Origin: Candidatus Spongiihabitans sp.
GTDB lineage: Bacteria > Pseudomonadota > Gammaproteobacteria > Arenicellales > Poriferihabitantaceae
Direction: 5' to 3'
Assembly: GCA_965206355.1 (NCBI GenBank)
Contig: OZ242212.1
Location: 2,014,814-2,078,813, forward strand
Length of the DNA stretch: 64,000 bases
The position numbers were made by a program, and so were the translations under genes. Under the pieces are notes generated by a model. The model ran no database searches. It worked only from the letters and a program-made list of their open reading frames with translations, and had not been told where the DNA came from. This document shows positions 10,220 to 28,160 of the stretch, in pieces. The first letter of the stretch is position 1. Every line of letters begins with the position of its first letter.

Positions 10220-11881
10220 ATGGCGCAATACGTTTTCACCATGAATGGCGTGGGCAAAGTCGTCCCGCCGAATCGACAGATACTGAAAGATATTTATCTG
10301 AACTTTTTCCCCGGTGCAAAAATCGGTGTACTGGGCTATAACGGCGGCGGCAAATCGACACTACTCAAAATCATGGCTGGCATTGACACTAATATCATCG
10401 GCGAAGCGCGACCGCGAGCCGATGTGCGCATTGGCTATCTGGCGCAAGAACCCGAATTAGATGAATCCAAAGATGTTCGCGGTAATGTTGAAGAAGGCAT
10501 GGCAGACATTAACCGTGCTAAACAACAACTGGAAGCAGTGTATGCCGCTTATGCGGAGGCCGATGCTGATTTTGATGCACTGGCAAAGCAACAGGCACAT
10601 TTGGAAGACATTGTGCAGGCGGCAGACGCGCACAACCTTGAGCATAAATTTGAAATTGCCGCTGATGCGTTGCGGTTACCGCCCTGGGATACGCCTATCA
10701 AAACACTTTCGGGTGGTGAAAGACGACGGGTCGCACTCTGCCGATTGCTGTTATCCAATCCGGATATGTTGATTCTGGATGAACCAACCAACCACCTTGA
10801 TGCCGAATCCATCGCCTGGCTGGAGAGATTTTTGCTTGAATTTGAGGGTACCGTAGTTGCGGTTACCCATGATCGTTATTTTCTTGACAATGTTGCCGGC
10901 TGGATTCTTGAACTTGACCGTGGTGCAGGCATCCCTTGGGAAGGCAATTATTCTTCATGGCTTGAACAAAAAGAAACCCGACTAGCGCAGGAACAAAAGA
11001 GCGAGCAGGCTCGAATTAAAAGCATCAAAAACGAGCTGGAATGGGTTCGTTCCAACCCTAAAGGACGACACGCCAAAAGCAAGGCGCGTATTAAACGCTT
11101 CGAGGAAATTTGCTCAAGCGACTACCAAAAACGCGCTGAAACGAATGAAATTTATATTCCACCAGGACCACGCCTCGGCGATCTGGTCATTGAAGCCAAG
11201 CAGATTTCTAAATCTTTCGGCGACAACCTGCTGTATGAAAACTTGAGTTTCAGCCTACCCAAAGGTGGCATAGTCGGCATTATCGGTGCTAATGGTGCGG
11301 GCAAGACAACGCTCTTTCGTATGATGACGCAACAGCAACAACCGACATCGGGAGAGTTTCGGGTTGGCGAGACGGTCAAAGTTGCCTATGTTGATCAATC
11401 ACGAGATACGTTGGATGCCAATAAAAGTGTTTTTGAAGAGGTCTCCAACGGTCTGGATTTGATGCTAGTCAACGGTCACCAAGTACAATCGCGGCGTTAC
11501 CTCGGTCGTTTTAATTTCAAAAGTACCGACCAGCAAAAAAAGGTGGGGACTTTATCTGGTGGTGAACGTAATCGCGTACATTTAGCCAAAGTCCTCGCCA
11601 GTGGTGGTAATTTACTGCTACTTGATGAACCGACTAATGATCTGGATGTAGAAACGCTGCGCGCATTGGAAGAAGCCATCTTGAATTATCCGGGTTGTGT
11701 CGCTGTTATTGCTCACGACCGCTGGTTTCTGGACAGAATCGCAACCCACATCCTCGCTTTTGAAGGTCATTCTCAAGTTACTTGGTTTGACGGAAATTAT
11801 AGCGACTACGCCGAAGACTACAAACGCCGCCACGGCGGCACCATCAAGCCGCAGCGGATGCGTTATAAGCGATTAAAGTAA
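10220..11881 (+). CDS. ettA: energy-dependent translational throttle protein EttA (ABC-F ATPase)
   Basis: 553-aa ORF with two ABC cassettes (GYNGGGKST / LSGGERRRV; GANGAGKTT / LSGGERNRV) and N-terminus MAQYVFTMNGVGKVVPP, typical of EttA/YjjK. Confidence 0.9.
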   Translation: MAQYVFTMNGVGKVVPPNRQILKDIYLNFFPGAKIGVLGYNGGGKSTLLKIMAGIDTNIIGEARPRADVRIGYLAQEPELDESKDVRGNVEEGMADINRAKQQLEAVYAAYAEADADFDALAKQQAHLEDIVQAADAHNLEHKFEIAADALRLPPWDTPIKTLSGGERRRVALCRLLLSNPDMLILDEPTNHLDAESIAWLERFLLEFEGTVVAVTHDRYFLDNVAGWILELDRGAGIPWEGNYSSWLEQKETRLAQEQKSEQARIKSIKNELEWVRSNPKGRHAKSKARIKRFEEICSSDYQKRAETNEIYIPPGPRLGDLVIEAKQISKSFGDNLLYENLSFSLPKGGIVGIIGANGAGKTTLFRMMTQQQQPTSGEFRVGETVKVAYVDQSRDTLDANKSVFEEVSNGLDLMLVNGHQVQSRRYLGRFNFKSTDQQKKVGTLSGGERNRVHLAKVLASGGNLLLLDEPTNDLDVETLRALEEAILNYPGCVAVIAHDRWFLDRIATHILAFEGHSQVTWFDGNYSDYAEDYKRRHGGTIKPQRMRYKRLK

Positions 11882-11884
11882 ATT

Positions 11885-11964
11885 GAGACTTTTGCACGAA
11901 AGCCATTTCACCTGCATGTTGCGTTAAAATCGTACTCAATCGGTCATTTATAAGCATAAACTCC
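11885..11964 (+). mobile_element. MITE copy 2 (truncated, left half only)
   Basis: GAGACTTTTGCACGAAAGCCATTTCACCTGCATG... matches the first ~80 bp of the family. Homology stops after TTCCGT. Starts 4 nt after the ettA stop. Confidence 0.7.
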
Positions 11965-11999
11965 CTAATTCCGTAATTCGAATGAATACCAACCACCAG

Positions 12000-14183: not shown

Positions 14184-14345
14184 GAGACCTTTGCACGAAA
14201 GCCATTTCACCTGCATGCTGCGTCGCCTAAAAGCGCCTACTGTTGGTAAAATCGTACTCAATCGGTCATTTATAAGCATAAACTCCCTCATTCCGTGCGT
14301 TTTTGCCTGGCCTGAAAGCGAAATCATCTTCCGTGCAAAGATCTC
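14184..14345 (+). mobile_element. MITE copy 3 (162 bp, long variant)
   Basis: Same termini as the other copies, plus a 23-bp internal insert CGCCTAAAAGCGCCTACTGTTGG. 5-bp duplication AATTC (14179-14183 and 14346-14350). Confidence 0.85.
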
Positions 14346-14514
14346 AATTCGTAATTACTCTCCCCTCTGTCGCTATTTTTTCTTCCTGACTTCGCGGTCT
14401 ACTGTTTCTAAATCGCTGACGGCCCAGTAAATACAGGAGTCTTTTGTTGAGATCGGTTTGCAATGCCTAGGTATTCTTTCTTTCCTTTATAAATCAATAG
14501 GTTAGACAACGAGT

Positions 14515-17500
14515 TTAGAGCCGGATGATGCCTTTCAGCAGGATGGCGTGCTCGGCACCGCCAGCGCTTTCGCTACGCTCGCCCACCAAGTTCAGATCGA
14601 ACAACGAATCTACCCCCCAATTCATCCCCAAACGGTAACGCTGGGCGGAGTTACTGGAGGTCATCTCGGCGTAAGGTGCCAGCAGCCCATGCCCGCCAGG
14701 TGCAGTCAGCCCGTAGCCGAGGCGCGTCTCCATCCGCATATCGTTATCCTGCTCGTCACTGATCTCTTCGAACAAGCCATCCTGCCACAGGGTTTGCGTG
14801 CCGCTGGCAGCGTTGCCGTAGACCGGACTCATACTGAACGATAGCCCTCGCCCGTCGCTACCCGTCTGTAGAAGTATTCGCCCAGAAACACCCCATTCCT
14901 GATAATCGGCCCGACCCAGCAGGGTGCGCACATTGCCTTCCACATTTAGCCCAACCGCAGGGTCGGCGTAGCACCAACCGGTCCCTAGCTCAAACCCGAA
15001 ACCAGTATCGCCGCCGCCGTCATAGCGCGCACCAGCCTCGAAACTCTGCTCCAGGTACGCCTCGCCAGACAACATCTGCCTGTGAGACCCTTCCAGAGCC
15101 ATCCGCAACAAGCTGGAATCCGTCTTCAGCGCCGCTATGCGACCGTTGCCCTTGACTTCCGAGTCGCTCAGCACACCTGAACCCTTTAGCCGGAAGATGG
15201 TCGTGCCCGGTAACTGATAATTGCCGCCTGCGCCCAGCATGCGCGTCTCGACATCGCTGGATGCTCGACCTTGTCCATCGGTGATTTCCAGATCGCCTTG
15301 ACCGAAACCAGCGGTAGCCCACAGGTCCAGCCCGGACAGCGTCTCCCAACTCGCGTAAGGATGGAGGGTGGTGATCTCCAACTGGTGCTCGCCGTGACCA
15401 GAGTCGCCTCGGTAATCAATATCGCTCTCGCTCCAGGAGGCCGCCACACCAATCAGCAGATCATCACGGAGTTTGCCATCTACGCCCAGCTGGGCACTGA
15501 ATAAATCGCCATCGAAATCCACGCCATTGCCGGAACCCTCGAAATCACGGTAGTCACCACCGCCCCAGAAGGTCAGGGAGGAGCCGCCGATGCCGCCGCT
15601 TGTGCCGCCGCCGCCAGTGCCATCCACAGCGTTCAAGGGCAAGGCGAAGCCGGAATTGCCGAGCATGGCCTTCACGTCCAACGTGCCATCAACTATGCCT
15701 TGTCCGTGCGCGGTTGCCACCCCAGCCAAGCTGGACTGCCCAGCGAAGGTGAGCGACTGGTTCGCACCAGTCCGGACTTGATCCATGCGCTGGGTTATCG
15801 CATCCACCGTCTGGTTGGTCAGGGCGCGCGCCACTTCCGGCAGAATCGTGTTGTTGAGATCGGTGAAGGCCTGTGTTTTGCTGGTGGTGATGGTAACGGT
15901 ATCCGCTACCGAGTCACTCACGCCATCGTTCACGGTCAAGGAGAACACCAGCACCACATTGGTCAGCAGATTGGCAGGTGCAGTGAAGGTCGGTGCGAAG
16001 GTGTCCGCGCCGGTCAGGGTCACTGTTGGTGTGCCGACCTGCCTCCAGGCGCAGATCAAAGCGCTGTTATCACCATCCGGATCGTCACTTCGACTGCCGT
16101 CCAGGGTGACGCTCGCGCCCTCGGCGACGGTCTGGTCAAGACCGGCATCGGCGGTGGGCGCGTCATTGGCCTGATTAACGCTCACGGTTGCCGTGGCCGT
16201 GACACTAAAATCAGTGCCGTCGGAGACGCTGAAGGTGAAGGTCGCATCGCCGTTGACATTGAGCGCCGGGGTATAGACCAGATTCGGAATACCGGCAACG
16301 GGAATCACTTGCCTCGCGGTAACCGCTGTGCCGTTCAGTGCCAGGCTGCCGCTGGTGCTGGCGGGTAGGGTATCGATACGCACTGCTTGCAGGCTGCCGC
16401 TAGCGCCCCCATTCCTAAAGGTGAAGTCCGCCTCCTTAAAGGTATAGGCGGTATCCTCAAGCGTCGTGACCGTCAGATCGCGGGTGGTGGGGGTACCCGT
16501 AGCAACGATGTTCAGGGTGGCCGTAGCGGGCGCGGCACTGAAGTCAGTGCCGTCAAAGACGCTGTAGGTAAAGGTATCTACTGTGCCAGCGGAATTCATG
16601 GCCGGGTGATAGAACAGGATGCCGAGCAGGTTAACGGGAAGCACTTGCCCCGCGATCACTGGTGTGTTGTTCAGGGATAGTAAACCGGCAGCGGGCAGGC
16701 TATCAATGCGCAGGCTGTGTAGCGTGGCACCGTCCGCATCGGCAAAGTTAAACTCGGCCACCCCCAAGTTATGGGCGGTACCCTCGAAGACTGTGACCGC
16801 CAACCCACTCGAGGTCGGCGGGCTATCCGTAGTAACGATGTTCAGGGTGCCCATAGCGGGCGCGACACTGAAGTCAGTGCCGTCGGAGACGCTGTAGGTA
16901 AAGGTCGCTGTGCCAGTGGTATCGGCCGCCGGGGTATAGACCAGAGTCGGAATATCGGCAACGGCAATCACTTGGGCCACGGTGACCGGCGCACCGTTCA
17001 GGCGCAGGTCGCCCAGGTTGGCGGGGGCGGGCAGGCTATCGATGCGCACTTGTTGCAGGCTATCGCCGATGTCCACATCGTTAAAGTTGAAATCATCCGC
17101 CAGGTTAAAGCCGGGATTACCCGCCGCAAAGGTATAGGGGGTATTCTCGAAGACTGTGACCTCCAGCCCGCTGGTGGTGGGCGGGGTATTGGTCCTTCTC
17201 ACCACTGGTAGCCCTCCCAACGCTGCTAGAAGCAGATCCTCAGCGTTATTCTGAAGATCAGTAAATCTGATGTCCAGATAGATAGGACCGCCGACATTGT
17301 CCTCTGTCAGCGTGTAGGTAGTGGAGTTCGCATTCGCGATCGGCGTCAGCCCTAATGCAAGCCACTGGTAGCTAAAGGCGGACGCATCGGTGGGCAGACC
17401 ATCAGCATCTTCTATGGTAGATATATCCGCCGTCAGGGTCGCGCCCACGCGCCTATCATCACCAATGACCGCGCCACCCGTGGCCTTGGTATTCTGCGCC

Positions 17501-17691
17501 ATGGCCTCGGTTGTCGAGAACAGCGATACCAGCAGAACCGTCAGCAGGCAACACCAGAACGGTCCTGAGTGTCCCTGAGAGTGGCCTTGTGGCCCAAAAA
17601 TCGGGGGGGGGGGGGGGGGGGGGGGGGTACTGGTGTGCCTGGTTTTGACGGGCTTATGGATGGTTGTACTCATGGCTGTATATGTGTGCAT
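14515..17691 (-). CDS. autotransporter-type outer-membrane adhesin (four cadherin-like ~110-aa repeats, a PKD-like domain and a C-terminal beta-barrel)
   Basis: 1058-aa ORF with signal-like segment FWCCLLTVLLVSLFSTTEAMA|Q. Four repeats of the pattern V.E.T.Y.F...F.F.D....L..VRIDSLP..G.L.LNG..V...Q.I....I..LVYTP...G...F.YSV.DG.DFS. The PKD-like block reads ANDAPTADAGLDQTVAEGASVTLDGSRSDDPDGD. A Gly/aromatic-rich C-terminal ~450 aa is typical of autotransporter barrels. The gene is visibly more GC-rich than its neighbours. Confidence 0.7.
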   Translation of the reverse strand: MHTYTAMSTTIHKPVKTRHTSTPPPPPPPPIFGPQGHSQGHSGPFWCCLLTVLLVSLFSTTEAMAQNTKATGGAVIGDDRRVGATLTADISTIEDADGLPTDASAFSYQWLALGLTPIANANSTTYTLTEDNVGGPIYLDIRFTDLQNNAEDLLLAALGGLPVVRRTNTPPTTSGLEVTVFENTPYTFAAGNPGFNLADDFNFNDVDIGDSLQQVRIDSLPAPANLGDLRLNGAPVTVAQVIAVADIPTLVYTPAADTTGTATFTYSVSDGTDFSVAPAMGTLNIVTTDSPPTSSGLAVTVFEGTAHNLGVAEFNFADADGATLHSLRIDSLPAAGLLSLNNTPVIAGQVLPVNLLGILFYHPAMNSAGTVDTFTYSVFDGTDFSAAPATATLNIVATGTPTTRDLTVTTLEDTAYTFKEADFTFRNGGASGSLQAVRIDTLPASTSGSLALNGTAVTARQVIPVAGIPNLVYTPALNVNGDATFTFSVSDGTDFSVTATATVSVNQANDAPTADAGLDQTVAEGASVTLDGSRSDDPDGDNSALICAWRQVGTPTVTLTGADTFAPTFTAPANLLTNVVLVFSLTVNDGVSDSVADTVTITTSKTQAFTDLNNTILPEVARALTNQTVDAITQRMDQVRTGANQSLTFAGQSSLAGVATAHGQGIVDGTLDVKAMLGNSGFALPLNAVDGTGGGGTSGGIGGSSLTFWGGGDYRDFEGSGNGVDFDGDLFSAQLGVDGKLRDDLLIGVAASWSESDIDYRGDSGHGEHQLEITTLHPYASWETLSGLDLWATAGFGQGDLEITDGQGRASSDVETRMLGAGGNYQLPGTTIFRLKGSGVLSDSEVKGNGRIAALKTDSSLLRMALEGSHRQMLSGEAYLEQSFEAGARYDGGGDTGFGFELGTGWCYADPAVGLNVEGNVRTLLGRADYQEWGVSGRILLQTGSDGRGLSFSMSPVYGNAASGTQTLWQDGLFEEISDEQDNDMRMETRLGYGLTAPGGHGLLAPYAEMTSSNSAQRYRLGMNWGVDSLFDLNLVGERSESAGGAEHAILLKGIIRL
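17603..17627. repeat. 25-nt homopolymeric G tract (poly-C on the coding strand)
   Basis: Counted directly in the sequence. It lies 64 nt downstream of the autotransporter ATG and encodes the poly-proline run between the start codon and the signal-like segment. Confidence 0.9.
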
Positions 17692-17694
17692 AAT

Positions 17695-18483
17695 CTATTC
17701 CTCCTCGTGCTTGTGACTGTACTCATGTTTGTATTGATATTTGATGCTACTAGATATTGGACAAATTTTCAACTCCTCGCCAACGCCCTCAGCGGAACCC
17801 GACGTAACGACTGCCACCTGTTCGACAACCGCAGCACCAATACGTGATGCTTGCGCCGACAAATCAGCCGAATTAAGCGCATATTGAATATTAAGCATCT
17901 CGGTTTCGCTGGTGAGATGCGTTTGCGCATAATTACGCGCAAACTCGGTTGATCTTAACAACTCCGATTTATCAACCACCGTGGATAGGCGTACTTTTGC
18001 GCGGTCATGATCCAGAGCTTGTCCACCAATGCGGGCGGCGGCAAAGCCTGCTCCCAGAAGCCCTCAAAATCGTCCCTTTGATGCTCCTAAGCGTTTACTG
18101 GCGGCATCGCGTTTTTCTATTGCCCGCTTTCGGCGTTGTAGCTTTTTAAGAGAAGCAGAAAGCCGATCATGCTCTTTGATGACAGAACCGATCTCAATCC
18201 CATAGGCACGTGCCTCACGTTTAGCCTGTCGATATTTTTGTTCGACCACCTCAATACCTGCCGCCAATCGCTGGCTTGATCCGCCCACAGCGGCTTGCTT
18301 GGCTTTTAAGTCGGTGAGCGTCTTTTTATAATGAATAACCCCTTTAGCCGCCCTGAGCTTGACATCCGTTTTGGTGACGGTTTCGCCAATTTGTGCTATA
18401 TTCTTGTGAACAGCACCAACAATCTGTTTGAATTTACCACCCAGAGCGGCTCCGATGACAATACCCAGTGATAAAGTTTTCAT
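17695..18483 (-). pseudogene. phage tail tape-measure protein remnant (5' part only, in-frame TGA at 18064-18066)
   Basis: ORFs 18064..18483 and 17695..17979 are in the same frame and separated only by one TGA. The sequence is coiled-coil and Ala/Gly-rich (LGASKGRF*GLLGAGFAAARIGGQALDHDRAKVRLSTVVDKSELL) and follows gpE/E' as in P2-like phages. It stops after ~260 codons, directly against the autotransporter start. Confidence 0.55.
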
Positions 18484-18820: not shown

Positions 18821-19090
18821 TTAATCTAAAAAATCCTGATACTGTGCCTGCAGTCGTAAATAGTCTTTCATATGTAATTCCTCAATCAGTGCTGGGGGTT
18901 GCCCAGTCAATGCGGCAAACACGGCAACCTCCGCATCTGCGGCTGTCATAGCGACTGTTTGAGCGGGTAGCACATCTTTTACACGCGGCTCACGCATCTG
19001 CAAAGTAGTTATCTGCTCGCCCTCAAATGTAAACGGATGTGCCAACATCACGTCTTTCTTTGGGCTTTTATTCGGTATTGTTTTACTCAT
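18821..19090 (-). CDS. phage tail assembly chaperone (P2 gpE-like)
   Basis: 89-aa ORF matching the pattern L.HPFTFEGEQITTLQMREPRVKDV.....A..TGQPPALIEELHMKDYLRLQ of the E/41/14 tail chaperone family; followed by a tape-measure remnant. Confidence 0.65.
   Translation of the reverse strand: MSKTIPNKSPKKDVMLAHPFTFEGEQITTLQMREPRVKDVLPAQTVAMTAADAEVAVFAALTGQPPALIEELHMKDYLRLQAQYQDFLD
18827..18833 (-). promoter_or_regulatory. candidate -1 programmed frameshift site (TTTTTTA) giving a gpE+E' fusion
   Basis: The canonical slippery heptamer T TTT TTA sits just before the gpE stop. The -1 frame stays open for 51 more codons (RLNPSDIRLLIVAVASVTGWPLSDFMPMLLKNLNDWADAVSAYQKLQHKQS) to a TGA at 18672, giving a ~140-aa product like P2 E+E'. 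Confidence 0.5.
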
Positions 19091-19177
19091 CGTTATTCTC
19101 CTAAAAATTGTGGGTTAAATGATTTATAGTCCGGCATTAGTGCGCGTCCGCTTGCTAGACAAGCCACTACCTTTAGA

Positions 19178-19663
19178 TTGGAATCTGAACGTCAACATTC
19201 AACCGACCCTCTCGCATATTTGATAACAGCTGGTATTGCCATAGAACTCTATATGAAGGCTTTAATGATATGTGCAAGAAATGGAACGATCACAAAGGGC
19301 CATGACCTTACAAAGTTGTACTCTGAGTTTCCCGAATTCCTTAAAACTCCATTAAATCAAAAATACCAACAGCAACTAGAATACAGGCAGATGGATTTAC
19401 AAAGCTACGCCTACACACTTTCCGAAGCCCAACCCGAGAGGCCAAGCGATAACATACCCTCCAACGATTACAGGAGTATGAACTCTGCCTTGTTGAGCTT
19501 ATCCGATATATTTACACGGTCTCGTTACTTTTTTGAAAAAAATCACGAAGGAGACTACGCCATATTCGAATTTCCTAAAGTTCAGATTGAGGCCATTTTC
19601 ACTTCTTTCGATAGCGTATATATTGAATACATGGAGGGAGTTTATGCGACTCGGACTAGGTAA
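19178..19663 (+). CDS. HEPN-like domain protein (cassette 1); start uncertain (TTG)
   Basis: AIELYMKALMICARNGTITKGHDLTKLY resembles the HEPN helix pattern A.E..lKAl....G.....HDL..L, and an Rx6H candidate RYFFEKNH lies near the C-terminus. No ATG start, so the gene may be 5'-truncated. Confidence 0.4.
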   Translation: MESERQHSTDPLAYLITAGIAIELYMKALMICARNGTITKGHDLTKLYSEFPEFLKTPLNQKYQQQLEYRQMDLQSYAYTLSEAQPERPSDNIPSNDYRSMNSALLSLSDIFTRSRYFFEKNHEGDYAIFEFPKVQIEAIFTSFDSVYIEYMEGVYATRTR

Positions 19664-19674
19664 AAACTAGTGCC

Positions 19675-19730
19675 GCCTAACAAAGTACTCCAGCGGACGG
19701 CTACGCCGCCGCTGAGTTTAATCGTTAGAA
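19675..19730 (+). other. attC site 1 (56 bp)
   Basis: Inverse core GCCTAAC (19675-19681), core GTTAGAA (19724-19730), internal pairing CAGCGGACGG / CCGCCGCTG. Confidence 0.8.
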
Positions 19731-19742
19731 CTCATAAGAATA

Positions 19743-20071
19743 ATGATGAAGAAACTACATATTGCAATTTCTACAAATAAGATAAACGAGACAATAAACG
19801 ATTACACTATTCGCCTAGGTGTCGAACCGTGTCTATTTGTTCCGAACGAATACGCATTATGGAGAACGGACTCGCTGAATGTATCGATTTGCCAAGATTT
19901 TTCTTGTACACTTGGAGACCTTCGACATTTAGGTTGGGAAGATGATTCCGCTCAAGAATTTAGCAAGATACTGACGTAAACGGAATTATTTGGGAATATT
20001 TTAATGCTCAACAACAAGCTGACGAAATTAACGAACTATGGTCAGAAATAAATTATCAGCCAGCAGATTGA
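19743..20071 (+). pseudogene. VOC/glyoxalase-like cassette gene with an apparent frameshift (cassette 2)
   Basis: The 78-aa ORF stops at 19979, but another frame continues NGIIWEYFNAQQQADEINELWSEINYQPAD* to 20071, ending exactly at the attC inverse core. The joined ..DVNGIIWEYF resembles the C-terminal D.dG..iE motif of VOC proteins. Confidence 0.35.
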
Positions 20072-20072
20072 G

Positions 20073-20129
20073 TTCTAACAAATTATTCCAGCCGACCGCT
20101 AACGCGGCGGCTGAATTCTAGCGTTATAC
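20073..20129 (+). other. attC site 2 (57 bp)
   Basis: Inverse core (GAG)TTCTAAC and core GTTATAC. The cassette starts TTAGAACTC, which is the reverse complement of GAGTTCTAA. Confidence 0.8.
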
Positions 20130-20144
20130 GCATAAGGAAATAAA

Positions 20145-20615
20145 ATGAAGAGAGTTCTAATTTTACCACTGCTGTTTTTTACATTATCAACTCATACTAT
20201 GGCTCAAGAAACGCCTGTTGATGAAATGTTTAGAGTTATGTCTATGGATAAACAAATAACGGGTGGTTTCGAAGCTATGATGCCTGTGATTGATCAAATG
20301 ACTTCTAAATTCAATTTAGATTCCGAAGGTAAGGAAGAGTTACGGGGGATTTTTCGCACATGGTTTAATGAAGATATTGACCGTGAAAAAATTATTCGGG
20401 AAGTTAAAAAACTGTATTCTCAAACTTTTACTAATGACGAACTTCGTGAAGTAACGAAATTTTATCAATCATCTGTAGGCAAAAAATTCTTAGAAAAATC
20501 AGCTTTACTAATACAAACCGGAACACAAATAGGTATGAAAGAAGCGCAAACTAAACAAGTTAAATTAATAGAACGTGTAAAACCTTTCTTAGAAAAACAT
20601 GGCATCAAGCAGTAA
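20145..20615 (+). CDS. secreted DUF2059-like protein (cassette 3)
   Basis: Signal peptide MKRVLILPLLFFTLSTHTMA|QE and RBS AAGGAA. The segment YSQTFTNDELREVTKFYQSSVGKKFLEKSALL matches my recollection of the DUF2059 family pattern. Confidence 0.55.
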   Translation: MKRVLILPLLFFTLSTHTMAQETPVDEMFRVMSMDKQITGGFEAMMPVIDQMTSKFNLDSEGKEELRGIFRTWFNEDIDREKIIREVKKLYSQTFTNDELREVTKFYQSSVGKKFLEKSALLIQTGTQIGMKEAQTKQVKLIERVKPFLEKHGIKQ

Positions 20616-20617
20616 GC

Positions 20618-20718
20618 GTATAACAAGCCATTCAAGCAGGACTTTTAACAGTTGGCTAGGTTCCGCTTCGCTTCACATTTTAGCCAACAATTAAAAGCCT
20701 CTTATTGGGCCGTTAGAC
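20618..20718 (+). other. attC site 3 (101 bp, long type)
   Basis: Inverse core GTATAAC and core GTTAGAC, with internal pairings CTTTTAA/TTAAAAG and TTGGCTA/TAGCCAA. The cassette starts TTATACGC, the reverse complement of GCGTATAA. Confidence 0.8.
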
Positions 20719-20735
20719 AACAGAAGAGGATAACG

Positions 20736-20987
20736 ATGAAATTTAATTTAACGACACCAAAGGCTATTTTGATAAGCTCCCTTATTATTACATTAGTGAT
20801 AACCCTCAAAACGGAAAATAGATTATCTTTTGTCCCAGAAGCAAAAGCGGAAGTTGCTGGTATGGGTTACCGTGATTTAAGAAGGGATAGAGATTTTAAA
20901 AAAGCAGTAAAATATATCGTAGAAAACTGTACCGTTAATGGATATGTAGAAGATGGCTATCTCTACAATTCACAAATATCTTGTTAA
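20736..20987 (+). CDS. small membrane-anchored hypothetical protein (cassette 4, first ORF)
   Basis: 83 aa from the ATG at 20736, preceded by AAGAGGA. One N-terminal TM helix (AILISSLIITLVITL). The longer ORF from 20652 would start inside attC 3. Confidence 0.45.
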   Translation: MKFNLTTPKAILISSLIITLVITLKTENRLSFVPEAKAEVAGMGYRDLRRDRDFKKAVKYIVENCTVNGYVEDGYLYNSQISC

Positions 20988-21007
20988 TCAAATCAAGGAG
21001 AAAAATT

Positions 21008-21214
21008 ATGTCTCAATACTATGTAAATAAAAATGCTCAATCAAATGGAGATCATGAAGTCCATACAACTGGCTGTTCATATCTGCCTGAACAGCAAAAT
21101 AGAGTATATCTAGGTGACTTCAGTAGTTGCCATTATGCAATAACTGAAGCACGGAAACACTATTCTCAAGTTAATGGATGCTATTATTGCTGTAATGCCT
21201 GTCACACTCAATAG
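21008..21214 (+). CDS. small Cys/His-rich hypothetical protein (cassette 4, second ORF)
   Basis: 68 aa from the ATG at 21008, preceded by AAGGAG: MSQYYVNKNAQSNGDHEVHTTGCSYLP...GCYYCCNACH. No attC separates it from the upstream ORF. Confidence 0.5.
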   Translation: MSQYYVNKNAQSNGDHEVHTTGCSYLPEQQNRVYLGDFSSCHYAITEARKHYSQVNGCYYCCNACHTQ

Positions 21215-21223
21215 ACAGCGATT

Positions 21224-21298
21224 GTCTAACAAGCACCTGCACTGGATGTCTTTTTCGCACTTCGTGCTCCAAAGTCACCAGTGAGGTGAACGTTAGCA
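21224..21298 (+). other. attC site 4 (75 bp)
   Basis: Inverse core GTCTAAC and core GTTAGCA, with internal pairing CACCTGCACTGG / CCAGTGAGGTG. The cassette starts TTAGACAA, the reverse complement of TTGTCTAA. Confidence 0.8.
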
Positions 21299-21894
21299 GT
21301 ACATGGAGTTTAGGTGCTTTGGGCAAGTTAATTATTAAAATTCTAAAGATATCGCTACTTTTGTTAGTTGCTATTGCTCTTATTATTGGAGCGTATTTCG
21401 GTTACCTAGACTACGAAAAATCTCAAAAACTAAAAGCCGAGTTAAGTTACAAATCTAAACATGAATGGATATGGCACGATGAATATGAACGTATTCAAAT
21501 AAGACATATTGATGCTATTGGCAAAAGTATGCTTCGCAAAGTTTATACTCATAAAAATCATGTTATTTATGCGTATAAAAATGACGACTATTCACTTCAA
21601 GCAACAGTTTTATTTTTTGTACCTTGTGAGCCACAAAGTGAAATCATAACATCACAAGAGTTTAGTTCGGGTGAACCCAAAAAACTTGTATGCAACTCAG
21701 ACGGTGAAGCTCTTCGTTTTGGTGTTAGTTGGTCAGATAAAAGTAGTGATAAGCTTTGGGAAGAAAAGCTTGATGGGTTTAGTTTAAGAGTTGATTTCTC
21801 AGATTGGGACTTTACGAAATTAGATCAAGAAGTAACTTTATCAAAAGCTGAGCCAAAAAGTACTGCTAACAAGTCGCTCAAGCGGACGCGCTAA
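21286..21894 (+). CDS. hypothetical membrane-anchored protein (cassette 5); start uncertain (GTG inside attC 4)
   Basis: 202-aa ORF with one N-terminal TM helix (ISLLLLVAIALIIGAYFGY). I recognise no motif. Its 3' end runs into attC 5. Confidence 0.45.
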   Translation: MNVSSTWSLGALGKLIIKILKISLLLLVAIALIIGAYFGYLDYEKSQKLKAELSYKSKHEWIWHDEYERIQIRHIDAIGKSMLRKVYTHKNHVIYAYKNDDYSLQATVLFFVPCEPQSEIITSQEFSSGEPKKLVCNSDGEALRFGVSWSDKSSDKLWEEKLDGFSLRVDFSDWDFTKLDQEVTLSKAEPKSTANKSLKRTR

Positions 21895-21919
21895 TCGCTC
21901 GCTTAGCAAGGCATTAGAT
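21864..21919 (+). other. attC site 5 (56 bp)
   Basis: Inverse core TGCTAAC and degenerate core ATTAGAT. The cassette starts TTAGCAGTA, the reverse complement of TACTGCTAA. Confidence 0.7.
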
Positions 21920-21937
21920 GACAAAAGGAAAATAACC

Positions 21938-22627
21938 ATGTTTTGGGATTCCGTTCTTGGTGGCCTTAAAGTGTTGACTTATTGGGAAGTGTATGTTGCC
22001 GGACTTGCGTATCTTGCAATATTTTTTATTCCGATGGCCATAATTAGCATGGTTATGGAAAAAGATGAAGGTCGTGGAGCATTTACAGGTTGTCTCAGTA
22101 AATTTTTAATACCTTTGCCTAAAGCAGTAGCAATGGCAATTATGATTCTTACCATCGCGCCGATAATCTTTGGCCTTTCCGAGGACGCAGCATGGAGTTT
22201 TCCATGGCAATTTATAGTTATGGAACCGGGCGTTTTTTTAATGCTTTTGAGTGTCCTAGCCGTCGTACATACAGCTATTCCAGGATTTGTACCAATCAAC
22301 CCGGTGCAATCATTACAAACGCTTGTGCTTGGCGGAATCACACTCGTGATTGTTCTCAACGGTATTCTTGATTCAATTAGTCCGGGCATAGTCAAAGATC
22401 GCGTAGATTTTATTCCTGGGTTCTGGTTTTCGACAAGCCTAATCGTATTGGGGTACGTTCTGTCAGGGGTTGGCATGATAGTAGGAACCATAATAGGATC
22501 GGTGTTTGCAATGGGCAAAAAAAATATCGGTGAGTTAATTGTGATCCCTATCTCAGAAATATTCGGTTTTGTTCCAGTATTTATGTATGGCGCATGGATA
22601 GGCGCACAAGTCCGAGGCGGTTTCTAA
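21938..22627 (+). CDS. hypothetical polytopic membrane protein (cassette 6)
   Basis: 229-aa ORF with about 6-7 hydrophobic helices and RBS AAAGGAA. No motif recognised. Confidence 0.5.
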   Translation: MFWDSVLGGLKVLTYWEVYVAGLAYLAIFFIPMAIISMVMEKDEGRGAFTGCLSKFLIPLPKAVAMAIMILTIAPIIFGLSEDAAWSFPWQFIVMEPGVFLMLLSVLAVVHTAIPGFVPINPVQSLQTLVLGGITLVIVLNGILDSISPGIVKDRVDFIPGFWFSTSLIVLGYVLSGVGMIVGTIIGSVFAMGKKNIGELIVIPISEIFGFVPVFMYGAWIGAQVRGGF

Positions 22628-22633
22628 TATGTC

Positions 22634-22694
22634 ATCTAACAAGGCGTAGAAAGCGAATTGCCAAAACGCTACGCACTTTATTAACCAGTTAACC
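22634..22694 (+). other. attC site 6 (61 bp)
   Basis: Inverse core ATCTAAC and core-like GTTAACC, with internal pairing GGCGTAG / CTACGC(A)C. The cassette starts TTAGATGAC, the reverse complement of GTCATCTAA. Confidence 0.75.
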
Positions 22695-22860
22695 TAGCAC
22701 TATATTTAGACCGATCCTGGATACTAATTTAGATGAATCTTAACCCATTTTTTTAATTAAAATGAGACCTTTGCACGAAACCACAAGAATCTGCGTTGAG
22801 AATTTGCGATAATAGGTTCAAGCACTATACCCCACCACACTACCCCCTGGAGGAGAAGAA

Positions 22861-24003
22861 ATGGCCTGGAAAAACCTCACGCAACGCAGTTTGGCGGATG
22901 GCATGTTGATCGAGCATGATGCCCTCAAAGAACTGGATGGTGTGCACGAATTAATCGATTGGTCGCGCCTTGAGCAACTGCTTTCAGGTATTCATGCAAG
23001 CCCTCGGGGCGAGAAGGCCTGGCCGCCATTGATGATGGTTAAAGCGTTGTTGCTGCAAAGCTGGTACGGGCTCAGTGATCCGGCACTGGAAAAGCAATTG
23101 GCGCGAGACCTGCTGTTTCGTCGCTTCACCGGTCTGGACATTTCAGAATCGGTGCCGGATCACACGACGTTGTGGCGGTTTAGACAAACGCTGGAGCGCT
23201 TATCCTTGATGGATGCGTGCCTGGGTGAGATCAACACGCAATTGAGCGAACAAGGGCTTTACATCCAATCGGGAGGGGTCAGTATTGTTGATGCCAGTGT
23301 GATTGAAGCGAAGCCATGTCGTCCCTACAAGGGTCGTCCCCATAAGAACCAGGAAGGTCATTCGACCCAAGACCCCGAGGCCAGCTGGAATGTGAAAGCC
23401 GGGTCGGATGGAAAGCGCAAAAGCACATATGGGTATAAGGCGCACATAAATGTGGATGAAGATGGGTTCATCAAGTCAACCGACTACAGCCCGGGTAATG
23501 TGCATGATTCCAATTGCTTTACGGATTTATTAGGCGGCGATGAGACGGCGGTTTATGCGGATAGTGCTTATCGTAGTCGGGCTCACGACCAGTGGCTGGC
23601 GGAGCGACAGATAGATAGAGACCTTTGCACGAAAGCCATTTCACCTGCATACTGCGTTAAAAACGTACTCAATCGGTCATTTATAAGCATAAACTCCCTC
23701 ATTCCGTGCGTTTTTGCCTTGCCTGAAAGCGAAATCATCTTCCGTGCAAAGGTCTCAGATAACCGGGTCATCAAACGTGGCTATCGGAACAAGCCGTTGG
23801 ATGCACAGGGGAGGAAGTTTAATCGGCTTCATTCTGGGGTACGCTGTACGGTGGAACGTGTCTTTGGGGTGCTCAAGCTACACTACGGGATGGGCAAAGC
23901 CCGCTACCTGGGTCTTGGCCGTAACCGCACGCGCTTTGAGTTGATGTGCGTCGCCCACAATATCAAGCGGGGTTTATCGCTTCAGCAGGCAAGTTGCGCC
24001 TAA
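22861..24003 (+). CDS. IS5-family DDE transposase with an in-frame 144-bp MITE+duplication insertion (probably inactive)
   Basis: WPPLMMVKALLLQSWYGLSDPALE, VDASVIEA, YADSAYRS and VERVFGVLK match the IS5/DDE_Tnp_1 pattern. Residues RDLCTKAISPAYCVKNVLNRSFISINSLIPCVFALPESEIIFRAKVSD are MITE-encoded, between the second D and the E. Confidence 0.8.
   Translation: MAWKNLTQRSLADGMLIEHDALKELDGVHELIDWSRLEQLLSGIHASPRGEKAWPPLMMVKALLLQSWYGLSDPALEKQLARDLLFRRFTGLDISESVPDHTTLWRFRQTLERLSLMDACLGEINTQLSEQGLYIQSGGVSIVDASVIEAKPCRPYKGRPHKNQEGHSTQDPEASWNVKAGSDGKRKSTYGYKAHINVDEDGFIKSTDYSPGNVHDSNCFTDLLGGDETAVYADSAYRSRAHDQWLAERQIDRDLCTKAISPAYCVKNVLNRSFISINSLIPCVFALPESEIIFRAKVSDNRVIKRGYRNKPLDAQGRKFNRLHSGVRCTVERVFGVLKLHYGMGKARYLGLGRNRTRFELMCVAHNIKRGLSLQQASCA
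23618..23756 (+). mobile_element. MITE copy 4 (139 bp) inside the IS5-family transposase gene
   Basis: Full termini are present. 5-bp duplication AGATA (23613-23617 and 23757-23761). Confidence 0.85.
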
Positions 24004-24011
24004 AAAATGAA

Positions 24012-24729
24012 GGGGCTGTCCTAGATAACACTGAAAGAGTGCTATCATGGGATCAATGAGAAAGAGTCGTTTAAGCCGTTATAAACAAGGTCGTCTTATC
24101 GAGCATTTTGTGTCGGGTTCAACCGCCCGCACGGCAGCGTTGCTGGTTGGGATCAACAAGTCCACATCGGCGTATTTTTATCACCGGTTGCGCGAGATTA
24201 TCGCATATGAGCTTGAACAAGAAAGCCATGAGGTTTTTGACGGGGAGATTGAAGTCGATGAAAGTTATTTTGGCGGTGGTCGCAAAGGCAAACGAGGTCG
24301 GGGAGCGGCGGGGAAAATCCCGGTGTTTGGCTTACTCAAACGGGGCGGGAGGGTTTACACCAAGATTATCCCGGATGCCTGTTCAGCAACCTTGATGCCA
24401 ATTATTGAGCGTAAAGTGGTTCCGGACAGCATCGTTTATTCCGACTGTTGGAGCGGTTATAATGTGCTGGACGTGAGCGATTTCAAGCACCACCGCATCA
24501 ACCATTCCCAACGCTTCGCGGAGCAGGGGAATCACATCAACGGCATTGAGAACTTTTGGAGTCAGGCGAAGCGTCATATGCACAAATTCAACGGTGTTCC
24601 CAAGGCGCATTTTGGGCTGTTTTTGAAGGAGTGCGAGTGGCGTTTTAACAACAGCGACCCAATATCTCAATTATTTCAATTAAAACAATGGGTTGGAGTT
24701 CATTTAAACTAGTTATCTAGGACAGCCCC
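24012..24729 (+). mobile_element. IS1595-family (IS1016-like, 718 bp) insertion sequence nested in the IS5-family element
   Basis: 18-bp perfect terminal inverted repeats GGGGCTGTCCTAGATAAC / GTTATCTAGGACAGCCCC. 8-bp target duplication AAAATGAA (24004-24011 and 24730-24737). Confidence 0.85.
24047..24712 (+). CDS. IS1595-family transposase (ISXO2-like DDE domain)
   Basis: 221-aa ORF. EVDESYFGG, IVYSDCWSGY, HHRINHS and INGIENFWSQAKR match my recollection of IS1595/IS1016 transposases. Confidence 0.8.
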   Translation: MGSMRKSRLSRYKQGRLIEHFVSGSTARTAALLVGINKSTSAYFYHRLREIIAYELEQESHEVFDGEIEVDESYFGGGRKGKRGRGAAGKIPVFGLLKRGGRVYTKIIPDACSATLMPIIERKVVPDSIVYSDCWSGYNVLDVSDFKHHRINHSQRFAEQGNHINGIENFWSQAKRHMHKFNGVPKAHFGLFLKECEWRFNNSDPISQLFQLKQWVGVHLN

Positions 24730-24861
24730 AAAATGAAAAAGGGGTGAAAGATGGGCTAATCGGCCAACCAATACGGCTGATTGAGTGCTTTTTGGGCATC
24801 TTTCTCAAAAAAAGCCCGTTTGGAGAACTGAGAAACCCTACAATGTGCCCGTGCAAAGGTT

Positions 24862-26652
24862 TCATTTTTTCTTAGGCATATACAAATCAGTAATCGTACC
24901 CTCAAAGGCTTCGGCAGCAAATCCTAATGTTTCTGCCAGAGTCGGGTGAGCGTGGATTGATAATCCAATATCAGCGGCATCCGCGTTCATCTCAATAGCG
25001 AGTACCGCTTCGGCGATGAGATCTCCGGCATTATTGCCAGTTATCCCAGCACCGATAATGCGATCATTGCCTTTATTAAAAAGTAATTTAGTTATACCTT
25101 CGTTGCGACCCTGAGACAGTGATCTACCGCTGGCTACCCAGGGGAAAACCCCTTTCCCATAATTCAAACCTTGTGCCTTGGCTTCGGTTTCGGTGATGCC
25201 AACCCAGGCTATCTCCGGATCGGTATAGGCAACATTCGGTATCACTTTGGCATCAAACCCGCTCTTTAATCCTGCTGCTACTTCTGCGGCAACTTTCCCT
25301 TCATGGGATGCTTTATGCGCCAGCATCGGTTGCCCGACGGTGTCGCCAATCGCAAAGATATGCGGGATATTGGTCTGTTGTTGGTTATTGACTTCAATAA
25401 AGCCACGCTCTGAGACGATAATACCTGCCGCTTCGGCGTTAATACGCTTGCCATTCGGAGTACGCCCAACCGCAACCAAAACACCATCAAAAGTGCTATG
25501 TGGCGGGGCTTTATCACCCTCAAAAGTTACTTTGATGCCGCTTTTTAATGCCTTCATTCCGGTTACTCTGGTTTTCAGCCAGATGTTTTGGTATTGCGCT
25601 TTAATACGTTTTAACAATGGGCGCACCAAGTCCACATCAGTACCCTGCATCAGACCATCAAGCATTTCCACAACGCTGATTTTACTGCCCAGCGCATGAT
25701 ATACCGTTGCCATTTCCAGACCAATAATGCCGCCGCCGACAATGAGTAATTTTTCAGGAATATTATTGAGTGCCAATGCCGCGGTAGAATCCATCACTCT
25801 GGCATCATGGTGAGGAAAGTCGGCAATCTCGACTGACTCCGAGCCGACGGCAATAATCATTTTGTCAAAGGAAATGGTCTCAGAGCCAGTGCTTGACGAC
25901 ACCTCAATCATATTTGCCGTTTGCAGTTGTCCGACACCTTGAATGACGGTTACCTTGCGTTTTTTTGCAAGCCCTGACAATCCCTGAGTTAATTGATTAA
26001 CGAGAGCGTTTTTCCAACTCAGGGTTTGTTTAATGTCGATTTTCGGTGCCGCGAAAGTCAAACCAACATGCTCGGCCTGCTCGCTTTCAGCAATCACTCT
26101 CGCCACATGCAGCAAGGCTTTTGAAGGGATACAACCGACATTGAGACAAACCCCACCCAAGCGTTGGTGTTTTTCAACAAGTGTAACCTGCAATCCGAGG
26201 TCGGCTGCCCGAAATGCCGCAGTATAACCACCCGGTCCCGCACCCAATACCAGCAACTCGGTATGTTTGTCGGCATTGTGTCCAACCGCCGCTCGTGATG
26301 AGGCGGGGGATGCGGGTGCGTCTCCTGCATCGGCTGGGGTGGATGAATTCGGGAATTCAGCGGCTTGTTCTGGCGGCGGTTGTGCGGGGAGCGTTTTTTG
26401 CTGAATCTGTGGGTCAGCTTCAATAATAAACAGCACCTGACCGCTGCAAATCCGATCACCCACCGCAATGTTCACTACCTTAACAACACCACCGTTGCTG
26501 GCGGGAATTTCCATAGTCGCCTTATCACTCTCAATAGCGAGCAATGGCTCATCGGTCGCTATAACATCACCAACCTGCACGAAAATCTCGATAATGGGAA
26601 CATTTTCAAATTCCCCTAAATCGGGGGTTTTGAGCTCAATTTGATTGGACAT
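24862..26652 (-). CDS. lpdA: dihydrolipoyl dehydrogenase (E3) with an N-terminal lipoyl domain
   Basis: 596-aa ORF with an N-terminal lipoyl motif (IESDKATMEIPA), FAD motif GAGPGGY, redox-active GGVCLNVGCIPSK, and a C-terminus ending ..TDLYMPKKK as in Lpd. Confidence 0.9.
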   Translation of the reverse strand: MSNQIELKTPDLGEFENVPIIEIFVQVGDVIATDEPLLAIESDKATMEIPASNGGVVKVVNIAVGDRICSGQVLFIIEADPQIQQKTLPAQPPPEQAAEFPNSSTPADAGDAPASPASSRAAVGHNADKHTELLVLGAGPGGYTAAFRAADLGLQVTLVEKHQRLGGVCLNVGCIPSKALLHVARVIAESEQAEHVGLTFAAPKIDIKQTLSWKNALVNQLTQGLSGLAKKRKVTVIQGVGQLQTANMIEVSSSTGSETISFDKMIIAVGSESVEIADFPHHDARVMDSTAALALNNIPEKLLIVGGGIIGLEMATVYHALGSKISVVEMLDGLMQGTDVDLVRPLLKRIKAQYQNIWLKTRVTGMKALKSGIKVTFEGDKAPPHSTFDGVLVAVGRTPNGKRINAEAAGIIVSERGFIEVNNQQQTNIPHIFAIGDTVGQPMLAHKASHEGKVAAEVAAGLKSGFDAKVIPNVAYTDPEIAWVGITETEAKAQGLNYGKGVFPWVASGRSLSQGRNEGITKLLFNKGNDRIIGAGITGNNAGDLIAEAVLAIEMNADAADIGLSIHAHPTLAETLGFAAEAFEGTITDLYMPKKK

Positions 26653-26705
26653 TGCCGTAGAAATTTTGAGTGGGTTTATCGGTGGCAGACATTAACAACT
26701 ATAAA

Positions 26706-26866
26706 GAGATTTTTGCACGAAAGCCATTTCACCTGCAGGCTACGTCGCCTAAAAGCACCTACTGTTGGTAAAATCGTACTCAATCGGTCATTTACAAGCA
26801 TAAACTCCCTCATTCCGTGCGTTTTTGCCTGTCTGAAAGCGAAATCATCTTCCGTGCAAAGATCTC
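26706..26866 (+). mobile_element. MITE copy 5 (161 bp, long variant) between lpdA and aceF
   Basis: Termini are GAGATTTTTGCACG...CGTGCAAAGATCTC. 5-bp duplication ATAAA (26701-26705 and 26867-26871). Its last two bases form part of the aceF stop codon. Confidence 0.85.
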
Positions 26867-28160
26867 ATAAAGACAACCTTCGGACATCCCCGAAAGACTG
26901 GATCAGAAAGGCAACAAATCGGGCCGCTTCTGCACCATCAATAACGCGATGATCATAAGACAAATCTAGGGGTAACATAAGTCTTGGCTGAAAAGATTGC
27001 CCATCCCAGAGCGCGCTCATTTTCGCTCTGGTTATGCCCAGTATCGCAACCTCTGGTGCATTGACGATAGGGGTAAAAGCACTTCCGCCAATGCCACCGA
27101 GACTAGAAATAGTGATGCACCCGCCCTTGAGGTCATCGGGTGTTAGTTTGCCCTCTCTGGAACGCACACTGATATCCGCCATCTCTTGCGCCAAATCAAA
27201 AACACTCTTGCGCTCAACCTCCCGAATCACTGGAACAACCAGCCCATTGGGCGTATCCACCGCGATACCGATGTTGTAGTATTTCTTGAGTAGCAAGTGC
27301 ACACCGTCAGTAGCCAGCGAGGCATTGACATTGGGATATTTTTTAAGTGCGCCAACCAATGCTTTCATCACGAACGACAGCAATGTGATTCTTACGCCAT
27401 CTTTGTCCGCTTCCTCTTTTAGCGACTGACGAAAGGCTTCAAGTTCGGTAATATCTGCTTCATCATGGTGGGTCACATGGGGAATATTTAGCCAAGCGCG
27501 TTGCAGATGGAGAGCGGATAACTTTTTAATTCGAGATAATTCAATAGTCTCAACTTCCCCAAATTGAGAGAAATCAACTTCAGGTATGAGTGGAATGCCC
27601 TGCCCTTTTAATGGCTTGGCAGTTGTCGTGCTTGGTGCGGAAAGTTTTTGCTTGACCCAGGCGATGACATCCTCTTTCATAATGCGTGCTTTTCGCCCGC
27701 TACCCGTAATTTGAGCTAAATCCGCACCCATTTCTCTGGCAAATCGGCGCACCCCCGGACCGGCATGAGGCAGAATGCCATCAGCTTGCACCTCTGAAGC
27801 GGGCAAGCCCGGCAACGGCGCGTGTTCATGCGTGATCGCTGGCTTTTGTGGCGCGGGATTGGCTTTGCCAACAGCTACAGCGTTATTCTCGCTGATATTT
27901 TGCTCGGCATTGTCACTCGCAGGAGTATCTTCAGCAGCAATACGCATTATCACCATCCCTTCGGACACACTATCACCAACGGCAACATCAATGGCAGTGA
28001 TGGTGCCATTATCCGGTGCCGGTATCTCCATCGTTGCCTTATCACTTTCCAGTGTCAATAGCGAATCCTCTGCCACAACCGTATCACCAACACGCACTAA
28101 AATTTCAATAATCTCAACCGTATCGAAATCACCAATATCAGGAACTTTTACTTCAGCCAT
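26865..28160 (-). CDS. aceF: dihydrolipoyllysine-residue acetyltransferase (pyruvate dehydrogenase E2), single lipoyl domain
   Basis: 431-aa ORF with lipoyl motif LESDKATMEIPA, a subunit-binding domain (GPGVRRFAREMGADL) and catalytic DHRVIDGA. Confidence 0.9.
   Translation of the reverse strand: MAEVKVPDIGDFDTVEIIEILVRVGDTVVAEDSLLTLESDKATMEIPAPDNGTITAIDVAVGDSVSEGMVIMRIAAEDTPASDNAEQNISENNAVAVGKANPAPQKPAITHEHAPLPGLPASEVQADGILPHAGPGVRRFAREMGADLAQITGSGRKARIMKEDVIAWVKQKLSAPSTTTAKPLKGQGIPLIPEVDFSQFGEVETIELSRIKKLSALHLQRAWLNIPHVTHHDEADITELEAFRQSLKEEADKDGVRITLLSFVMKALVGALKKYPNVNASLATDGVHLLLKKYYNIGIAVDTPNGLVVPVIREVERKSVFDLAQEMADISVRSREGKLTPDDLKGGCITISSLGGIGGSAFTPIVNAPEVAILGITRAKMSALWDGQSFQPRLMLPLDLSYDHRVIDGAEAARFVAFLIQSFGDVRRLSL

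Follow-up and report, generated by a model that had tools for sequence, protein, structure and literature searches.

Six integron gene cassettes with no integrase gene nearby, cut at both ends by other mobile DNA, in Candidatus Spongiihabitans

Results

The locus

The 64-kb stretch of DNA analysed here (the window; contig OZ242212.1 of Candidatus Spongiihabitans sp.) contains a run of six units, each consisting of one or more open reading frames (ORFs) followed by an imperfect palindrome. We found that the palindromes are attC sites, that the units are integron gene cassettes, that no integrase gene (intI) lies nearby and that both ends of the run have been severed by other mobile DNA. The locus is very probably an integron gene-cassette cluster without an integrase (CALIN), the surviving middle of a former integron array. 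An earlier description of the locus, made without database searches (the sequence-only reading), had listed six units of this kind together with their core motifs, and all six were located where it had placed them. The whole array has one orientation, every ORF and attC site being on the + strand, and a single attC stands at the 3' end of each ORF unit. Its G+C content is 35-40%, against approximately 47% in the surrounding genome. The cassettes are as follows.

19130-19724, + strand: cassette 1, 5'-truncated; frame open from 19130, stop codon ending at 19663; product weakly HEPN-like
19725-20123, + strand: cassette 2, 399 bp; frameshifted pseudogene of a family of about 110 aa
20124-20712, + strand: cassette 3, 589 bp; secreted DUF2059 protein at 20145-20615 (Pfam E=4.7e-14)
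20713-21292, + strand: cassette 4, 580 bp; two ORFs, 20736-20987 and 21008-21214
21293-21913, + strand: cassette 5, 621 bp; 191-aa protein with an N-terminal membrane helix; TTG start at 21319, ORF end at 21894
21914-22688, + strand: cassette 6, 775 bp; multi-pass membrane protein of about 228-229 aa at 21938-22627

The palindromes are attC sites

All six palindromes open with xxxTAACAA and close with a core heptamer. When their ends were compared with the R'' and R' consensus sequences (RYYYAAC and GTTRRRY), sites 1 to 4 were found to have both the AAC and the GTT. Site 5 has kept the AAC, but A replaces the conserved G of GTT to give ATT, and its stem is imperfect. Site 6 has also kept the AAC; its R' is ambiguous and may be ATTAACC at 22679 or GTTAACC at 22688, or may have been partly deleted. 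The R'' of site 6, ATCTAACAA, is common to homologous cassettes, and an alignment with the attC sites of those cassettes revealed that its L boxes have been replaced.

The boundaries between cassettes carry a footprint of recombination. An integron integrase inserts a circular cassette by recombining the folded bottom strand of attC at G|TT, so the start of an inserted cassette is complementary to its own inverse core. This is what we observed: in cassettes 2 to 6 the bases that follow the preceding G|TT are the exact reverse complement of the end of the cassette's own R'', in runs of 10, 8, 8, 10 and 10 nt respectively, in agreement with the crossover footprint that the sequence-only reading had pointed out. 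The TTAG/CTAA consensus sets only 4 nt of each run, so the remainder is not due to chance.

An independent covariance model, R1, was built from 12 attC sites in four unrelated arrays, none of them from the window. These arrays were reached through protein homologues of cassette 6 in unrelated metagenomic and genomic contigs; the sites were picked by hand, and the attC sites of the homologous cassette itself were left out of the training set. The training alignment covaries, with 94% of cells paired compared with 31-44% for slid partners, and there are compensatory changes in 5 pairs. R1 was run with filters off over both strands of the whole 64 kb, and its top five matches were sites 1, 2, 4, 5 and 3, in that order and with exact ends. 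No other match at E<0.7 was found in that search; the sixth-ranked match (13 bits) lies inside lpd, the dihydrolipoyl dehydrogenase gene, and is without R boxes. As a positive control, R1 recovered three sites on which it had not been trained in the class 1 integron of plasmid pRSB105 (48-54 bits), one of them the dfrB2 attC. It also recovered two Vibrio campbellii repeats that are about 1.2 kb apart, at 20-21 bits. Thus, the model supports sites 1 to 5 of the six attC sites originally proposed, site 5 with its altered ATT core, while site 6 is degenerate. The scores are given here together with the stability of the bottom-strand fold relative to dinucleotide shuffles (z).

19675-19730, + strand: attC1, 56 nt; R'' GCCTAAC, R' GTTAGAA; R1 55.4 bits, E=5.5e-11; fold z=-4.5
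20073-20129, + strand: attC2, 57 nt; R'' TTCTAAC, R' GTTATAC; R1 45.8 bits, E=1e-8; fold z=-3.9
20618-20718, + strand: attC3, 101 nt; Vibrio/Pseudoalteromonas type; R1 15.3 bits, E=0.21; fold z=-3.1
21224-21298, + strand: attC4, 75 nt; R'' GTCTAAC, R' GTTAGCA; R1 26.3 bits, E=5e-4; fold z=-4.35
21864-21919, + strand: attC5, eroded, 56 nt; core ATTAGAT; R1 25.4 bits, E=8e-4; fold z=-0.8
22634-22694, + strand: attC6, degenerate, 61 nt; R1 2.7 bits; fold z=-1.1

The six sites are heterogeneous, with pairwise identities of 44-74%. When the bottom strands of sites 1 to 4 were folded as single-stranded DNA, each formed an R-box helix, an unpaired spacer and a bulged stem. These four folds are far more stable than those of dinucleotide shuffles, none of 200 shuffles being as good, while sites 5 and 6 are not more stable than their shuffles. 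Extrahelical bases, which the sequence-only reading had proposed to look for in such folds, are present as a G and a T, 5 nt apart, on the 3' arm of the bottom strand in sites 1 and 2; in site 4 a C and a T are unpaired at the equivalent positions.

Imperfect palindromes that are located downstream of ORFs could also be generic repetitive extragenic palindromic (REP) elements or intrinsic terminators. We give this explanation next to no chance, and within the window it is refuted. A T-tract is absent from all of the attC sites, and none was called terminator-like in a terminator scan. R1 found no copies elsewhere in the 64 kb. The footprints at the cassette boundaries and the homology to attC sites of real integrons would, moreover, be left unexplained. 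A search of Rfam found no match within the array.

Relatives in other integrons

Two of the sites have close relatives in integrons of quite different kinds. In a DNA search of a plasmid collection, attC1 was found to be 86% identical to the attC that separates dfrB2 from qacEdelta1 in the pRSB105 class 1 integron, and the identity is confined to the segment from R'' to R'. Comparison with chromosomal integrons, a further check put forward with the original description, placed attC3 among the Vibrio/Pseudoalteromonas-type repeats: repeats that share 76-85% identity with it are found on secondary replicons of Pseudoalteromonas, Aliivibrio and Vibrio campbellii, and the matching V. campbellii copy is one of the two that R1 had recovered there.

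The relatives of cassette 6 connect the array to integrons that retain an integrase gene. At locus L002 an IntI of 325 aa is encoded divergently, and the second cassette downstream of it specifies P0007, a homologue of the cassette 6 protein (63% identity); this IntI was identified by its Phage_int_SAM_4 and Phage_integrase domains and by its divergent position. Another homologue adjoins an IS-broken intI at locus L088 (IS, insertion sequence). DNA homology between the window and loci L002-L005 begins at the crossover (21910/21914) and ends at R'' (22642). An identical P0007 cassette occurs in three different arrays, which cease to match one another exactly at G|TTAGATGAC on one side of it and just after GCGTTAG on the other; on a comparison of the three arrays, this is direct evidence of cassette mobility at these boundaries. 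Members of the cassette 6 family with 45-66% identity were seen in Acidobacteriia, Tectomicrobia, Brocadia, Desulfobacterales, Nitrospira and Gammaproteobacteria, and the gene is repeatedly an integron cassette (including at loci L002, L004, L005, L087 and L088).

The protein encoded by cassette 5 has homologues with 76-81% identity in Pseudoalteromonas, Marinobacter and Vibrio, and an attC of another type, 98 nt long, comes after the homologue in Pseudoalteromonas lipolytica. The cassette 5 gene and this P. lipolytica homologue share DNA through R'' (AAAAGTACTSCTAACAAGTC), beyond which the attC bodies are unrelated and differ in length (56 nt at 21864-21919 of the window versus 98 nt at L089 10555-10652). 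Thus, the same cassette 5 gene appears to have been paired with two attC types. Two of the loci reached in these comparisons, L087 9900-11440 in a metagenome-assembled genome of Acidobacteriia and L089 9990-10960 in P. lipolytica CP032091, themselves look like small integrase-less arrays of approximately two cassettes between housekeeping genes. The first cassette at L087 begins with TTAGGTGAC, and the absence of an attC upstream of it suggests that it was inserted at a secondary site.

Cargo of the cassettes

Cassette 2 is a pseudogene. Its ORF at 19743-19979 (78 aa) corresponds to residues 1-74 in a family whose members have about 110 aa, and the other frame continues to a stop codon at 20069-20071; the fused translation of the two frames aligns nearly full length with P0148 (110 aa; residues 1-107, 58% identity). 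The frameshift noted in the sequence-only reading therefore stands, but the VOC-like assignment made with it is weak and below the Pfam threshold, its sole evidence being a 14-bit Glyoxalase_4 hint in one homologue. A similar caution applies to the HEPN-like cargo assigned to cassette 1, whose product scores 20.1 bits against Pfam HEPN, under the cut-off of 22. The DUF2059-like secreted protein in cassette 3 was confirmed by its Pfam match, and its translation has a signal-peptide-like N-terminus.

Cassette 4 has two ORFs that are 20 nt apart, and the R1 search found no attC between them. The first encodes 83 aa with one hydrophobic helix, and the second a Cys-rich protein of 68 aa that matches phrog_4298, a family of unknown function (E=1.4e-27). 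The stop codon of cassette 5 falls within attC5. The 3' end of cassette 6 is uncertain because attC6 is degenerate; its protein has 147 homologues across many phyla, none with a Pfam domain. Even at E<=1, Pfam gave no match for the products of cassettes 2, 4, 5 and 6. A promoter scan of the array found sites no more numerous than in shuffles and is uninformative on expression.

The left edge is joined to a prophage fragment

On its left the array adjoins phage DNA.

17695-19090, - strand: prophage remnant, the left boundary; gpE-like tail assembly chaperone and tape-measure fragment

The gpE-type gene occupies 18821-19090 on the - strand (Pfam Phage_TAC_7, E=1e-18; phrog_166 tail protein, E=2e-20), as expected from the P2-like gpE gene that the sequence-only reading had placed at this edge. 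It is followed by an N-terminal fragment of a tape-measure gene at 18064-18483 (phrog_1272, E=8e-5), and the tail-tube gene that is expected before gpE is missing. The junction between phage and cassette 1 lies somewhere in 19105-19140, approximately. Earlier the cassette had been taken to start at 19137; gpE does mark the boundary there, but the cassette start does not hold. The frame of cassette 1 contains no ATG or GTG, and its first possible start is a TTG at 19178. Its only homologue in a search of about 5.8 billion sequences, P0136 (201 aa, 39% identity), is longer by some 17-20 N-terminal residues. The start expected for cassette 1, TTAGGCGG, the complement of its own R'', is absent, and at 19138 the DNA reads TTAGTGCG. 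For these three reasons cassette 1 is regarded as 5'-truncated, and the joint as a deletion joint rather than a recombination site.

This anatomy bears on two other accounts of how the array arose. According to the first, a trans-acting IntI began the array by placing one cassette at a chromosomal site resembling GTT, and those that came later went into the attC of that cassette, so that intI was never adjacent. Insertion by IntI outside att sites is documented (bioRxiv 10.1101/2022.09.11.507474; cited in PMC4889954), and ATTAGTG at 19137 does resemble a core site. Nevertheless, we consider such a build-up quite improbable: the frame of cassette 1 runs through 19137 with no start codon while its homologue needs the additional N-terminal residues, the expected start sequence is lacking, and the phage gene block on the left is itself truncated, which gives the joint the appearance of a deletion. 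The second account makes the cassettes the cargo of a P2-like prophage, in keeping with the direct contact between gpE and cassette 1 and with integrons and cassette recombination sites having been reported in phage genomes (PMC9892861). It is, in our judgement, highly improbable, since both partners at the joint are truncated (gpE has lost the tail-tube gene before it and cassette 1 its 5' end), the array has no match in the phage collection, and the homologues of its cassettes reside in chromosomal and metagenomic arrays, not in phages. A deletion joint at the edge of a former integron array remains the reading that we prefer.

Directly to the left of the prophage remnant, 14515-17691 (- strand) encodes an autotransporter of 1058 aa that has a poly-proline N-terminus and repeats of the Big_9, cadherin and PKD types; its G+C content is about 60%, compared with approximately 47% for the genome. 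From this composition and position, the ispA-lpd interval (approximately 13.9-24.9 kb) looks like a patchwork of foreign DNA.

The right edge is a nest of insertion sequences

The right edge is composed of the following elements, which include a miniature inverted-repeat transposable element (MITE).

22695-22708, + strand: possible stub of cassette 7, about 14 bp between site 6 and the IS1595-family remnant
22709-22763, - strand: end remnant of a second, diverged IS1595-family copy, 55 bp, cut by the IS5-family element
22764-24863, + strand: IS5-family element, the right boundary; Pfam DDE_Tnp_1/DUF772; inverted repeats
23618-23756: MITE nested in the IS5-family transposase gene, 140 bp; same inverted repeats; duplication AGATA
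24012-24729: complete IS1595-family element; DDE_Tnp_IS1595; 18-bp perfect inverted repeats; between the transposase stop codon and the right inverted repeat

The IS5-family element had been recognised at this edge from the outset, but it is in fact a nest of three elements, with the MITE and the complete IS1595-family element inside it. A seventh cassette of 75 bp had also been described, and this did not survive: the segment consists instead of the stub and the IS1595-family end remnant, whose positions 22715-22763 match the right end of the intact IS1595 copy (24673-24722) in reverse complement, at approximately 82% identity. If there was a seventh cassette, nothing more than this stub of about 14 bp may be left of it.

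The IS5-family element has no target-site duplication, its flanks being AAAAT and ATTTT, whereas clean duplications of 5 bp (TATTA, AATTC, ATAAA and ATTAT) border MITE copies found elsewhere in the window. This difference points to deletion or recombination at the IS5-family copy. A composite transposon, with the MITE at 14184 and the IS5-family element as its brackets, was also considered, but the outer flanks of such a structure differ and the idea was rejected. At its right end the IS5-family element overlaps the lpd stop codon: at 24862-24864, two nucleotides of that codon come from the IS end, and Lpd still aligns to its last residue with its relatives. The MITE family, with members of approximately 140-163 bp and IS5-family terminal inverted repeats (GAGACCTTTGCACG), is represented at 5776-5914, 11879-11974 (partial), 14184-14346, 23618-23756, 26705-26867, 38897-39035 and 47988-48125. 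Target duplications of 5 bp flank most of these copies. One member of the family is situated upstream of the transfer-messenger RNA (tmRNA) gene, at a distance of about 70 bp. That gene, at 39106-39462, encodes the tag ANDDNYALAA and is the sole Rfam/ARAGORN match in the window.

No integrase gene in the window

Searches of the window for an integrase gene were negative, in line with the sequence-only reading, to which none had been visible. Neither tblastn with the L002 IntI and the IntI1 of pRSB105, nor a hidden Markov model of both proteins run against all 1,192 six-frame segments, returned anything better than E=1.6. Thus, no intI or intI pseudogene was detected within 10 kb of the cluster, nor in the 19 kb upstream and 41 kb downstream of it; the flanking 10 kb are mostly accounted for by other genes and elements. 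The position that intI, attI and the cassette promoter (Pc) would have in a complete integron, upstream of the truncated cassette 1, is taken by the phage gpE on the opposite strand, and none of the three is found there. Among genome representatives, the best matches to the Lpd of the window were at 69% identity in a sponge-associated Ca. Spongiihabitans and 67% in Ca. Poriferihabitaceae, both Arenicellales; no integron lies near lpd in these relatives, which are distant enough to make synteny uninformative.

The array might alternatively be a detached part of a live integron, with intI and attI elsewhere in the genome, a split driven by IS or phage activity and cassettes that are still shuffled in trans. 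About half of CALINs are in replicons that encode IntI, and rearrangements can split integrons (Cury et al. 2016, PMC4889954). Here, IS elements and a prophage joint do bound the array, and attC1 to attC4 look intact. Against this, both flanks are free of intI as far as the window extends, and attC5, attC6 and cassette 2 have decayed, which would not be expected if recombination were still under selection. We consider a live, split integron possible but, on balance, doubtful.

Discussion

Our findings identify the locus as a CALIN. The definition requires at least two attC sites less than 4 kb apart on one strand, without intI (Cury et al. 2016, PMC4889954); here there are five model-supported sites, 400-640 bp apart from start to start and on one strand, and no intI in the window. 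The CALIN assignment that had been made from the sequence is borne out by the independent attC model, by the relatives of attC1 and attC3, and by a cassette 6 homologue that stands close to an IntI and whose homology ends at G|TT. The six cassettes are a real but ordinary integron remnant, partly decayed and with both ends cut by other mobile DNA. Such clusters are a well-known and common kind of element, 279 having been found in 2,484 genomes (Cury et al. 2016, PMC4889954), and no concept is changed by this one.

Several points weigh against this interpretation. Site 6 fails the covariance model and the folds of sites 5 and 6 are no better than those of shuffles, so that the sound sites number only four or five. 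The R1 model was built on just 12 sites and is distinct from the model used by IntegronFinder. The search for intI covered the 64-kb window, and an intI elsewhere in the 2.36-Mb genome would make the array a detached piece of a live integron and not a relic. Finally, we infer the order of the deletions from anatomy alone.

These observations suggest a history in which each unit was once a circular cassette and in which IntI added the units successively at an attI that is now gone. Given the orientation of the cassettes, the end with intI, attI and Pc would have been on the left, where the prophage fragment now lies; its loss would have left the 5'-truncated cassette 1 fused to a fragment of P2-like prophage. 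The loss of the distal end would have come after the insertion of an IS1595-family element and, later, an IS5-family insertion or deletion. Deprived of the integrase and of Pc, the array would be expected to decay, and the truncation of cassette 1, the frameshift in cassette 2, the ATT core of attC5 and the missing L boxes of attC6 may be the signs of this. Expression of the cassettes would then have to rely on promoters inside the cassettes themselves.

Not all of the array need have lost its capacity for recombination. Cassettes 2, 3 and 4 are complete and both flanking sites of each look intact (attC1 to attC4), so they could be excised if IntI were supplied in trans, whereas the distal cassettes probably could not. 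An extension of this idea is that the array is not dead at all: cassettes 2 to 4 would still be excised in trans and, given the 86% identity of attC1 to the attC of the clinical dfrB2 cassette, the organism, a gammaproteobacterium of uncultured type with a small genome, would serve as a donor to the cassette pool that feeds class 1 integrons, or, in a rarer variant, the cassettes would travel with a P2-like phage. We regard continued activity of this sort as rather unlikely.

The value of the locus is modest and lies in its being a cleanly dissected example of the death of an integron, with a prophage fragment in place of the integrase end, nested ISs at the far end, recombination sites that erode from the distal end and one cargo gene that has been frameshifted. 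Three attC origins, class-1-like, Vibrio/Pseudoalteromonas-like and G+C-rich environmental, stand side by side in it, pointing to wide cassette exchange. The cassette 6 family, which is uncharacterised and travels as an integron cassette in many phyla, may deserve a study of its own.

The array may be compared with three known systems. It resembles the arrays of class 1 integrons, such as intI1-blaOXA-10-dfrB2-qacEdelta1-sul1 in pRSB105, in its shortness, in the heterogeneity of its attC sites and in the likeness of attC1 to the dfrB2 attC. Unlike them, it lies outside any transposon or plasmid and lacks intI1, attI1, Pc, the 3' conserved segment and resistance genes. With the sedentary chromosomal integrons of Vibrio and Pseudoalteromonas it shares attC3, which belongs to their repeat family, and cassette 5, whose protein has its closest named relatives in those genera; those arrays, however, are long, have homogeneous attC sites and keep intI, while here only one of the six sites is of that type. 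The closest likeness is to CALINs as described by Cury et al. (2016, PMC4889954), in the clustering and number (about 5) of the sites, the absence of resistance genes and of a nearby intI, a cargo that is for the most part unknown, and an IS at the edge. Nothing categorical separates the present array from them: it differs in being visibly in decay, with one truncated and one frameshifted cassette and two eroded attC sites, and in that both of its ends have been cut by mobile DNA that can be identified.

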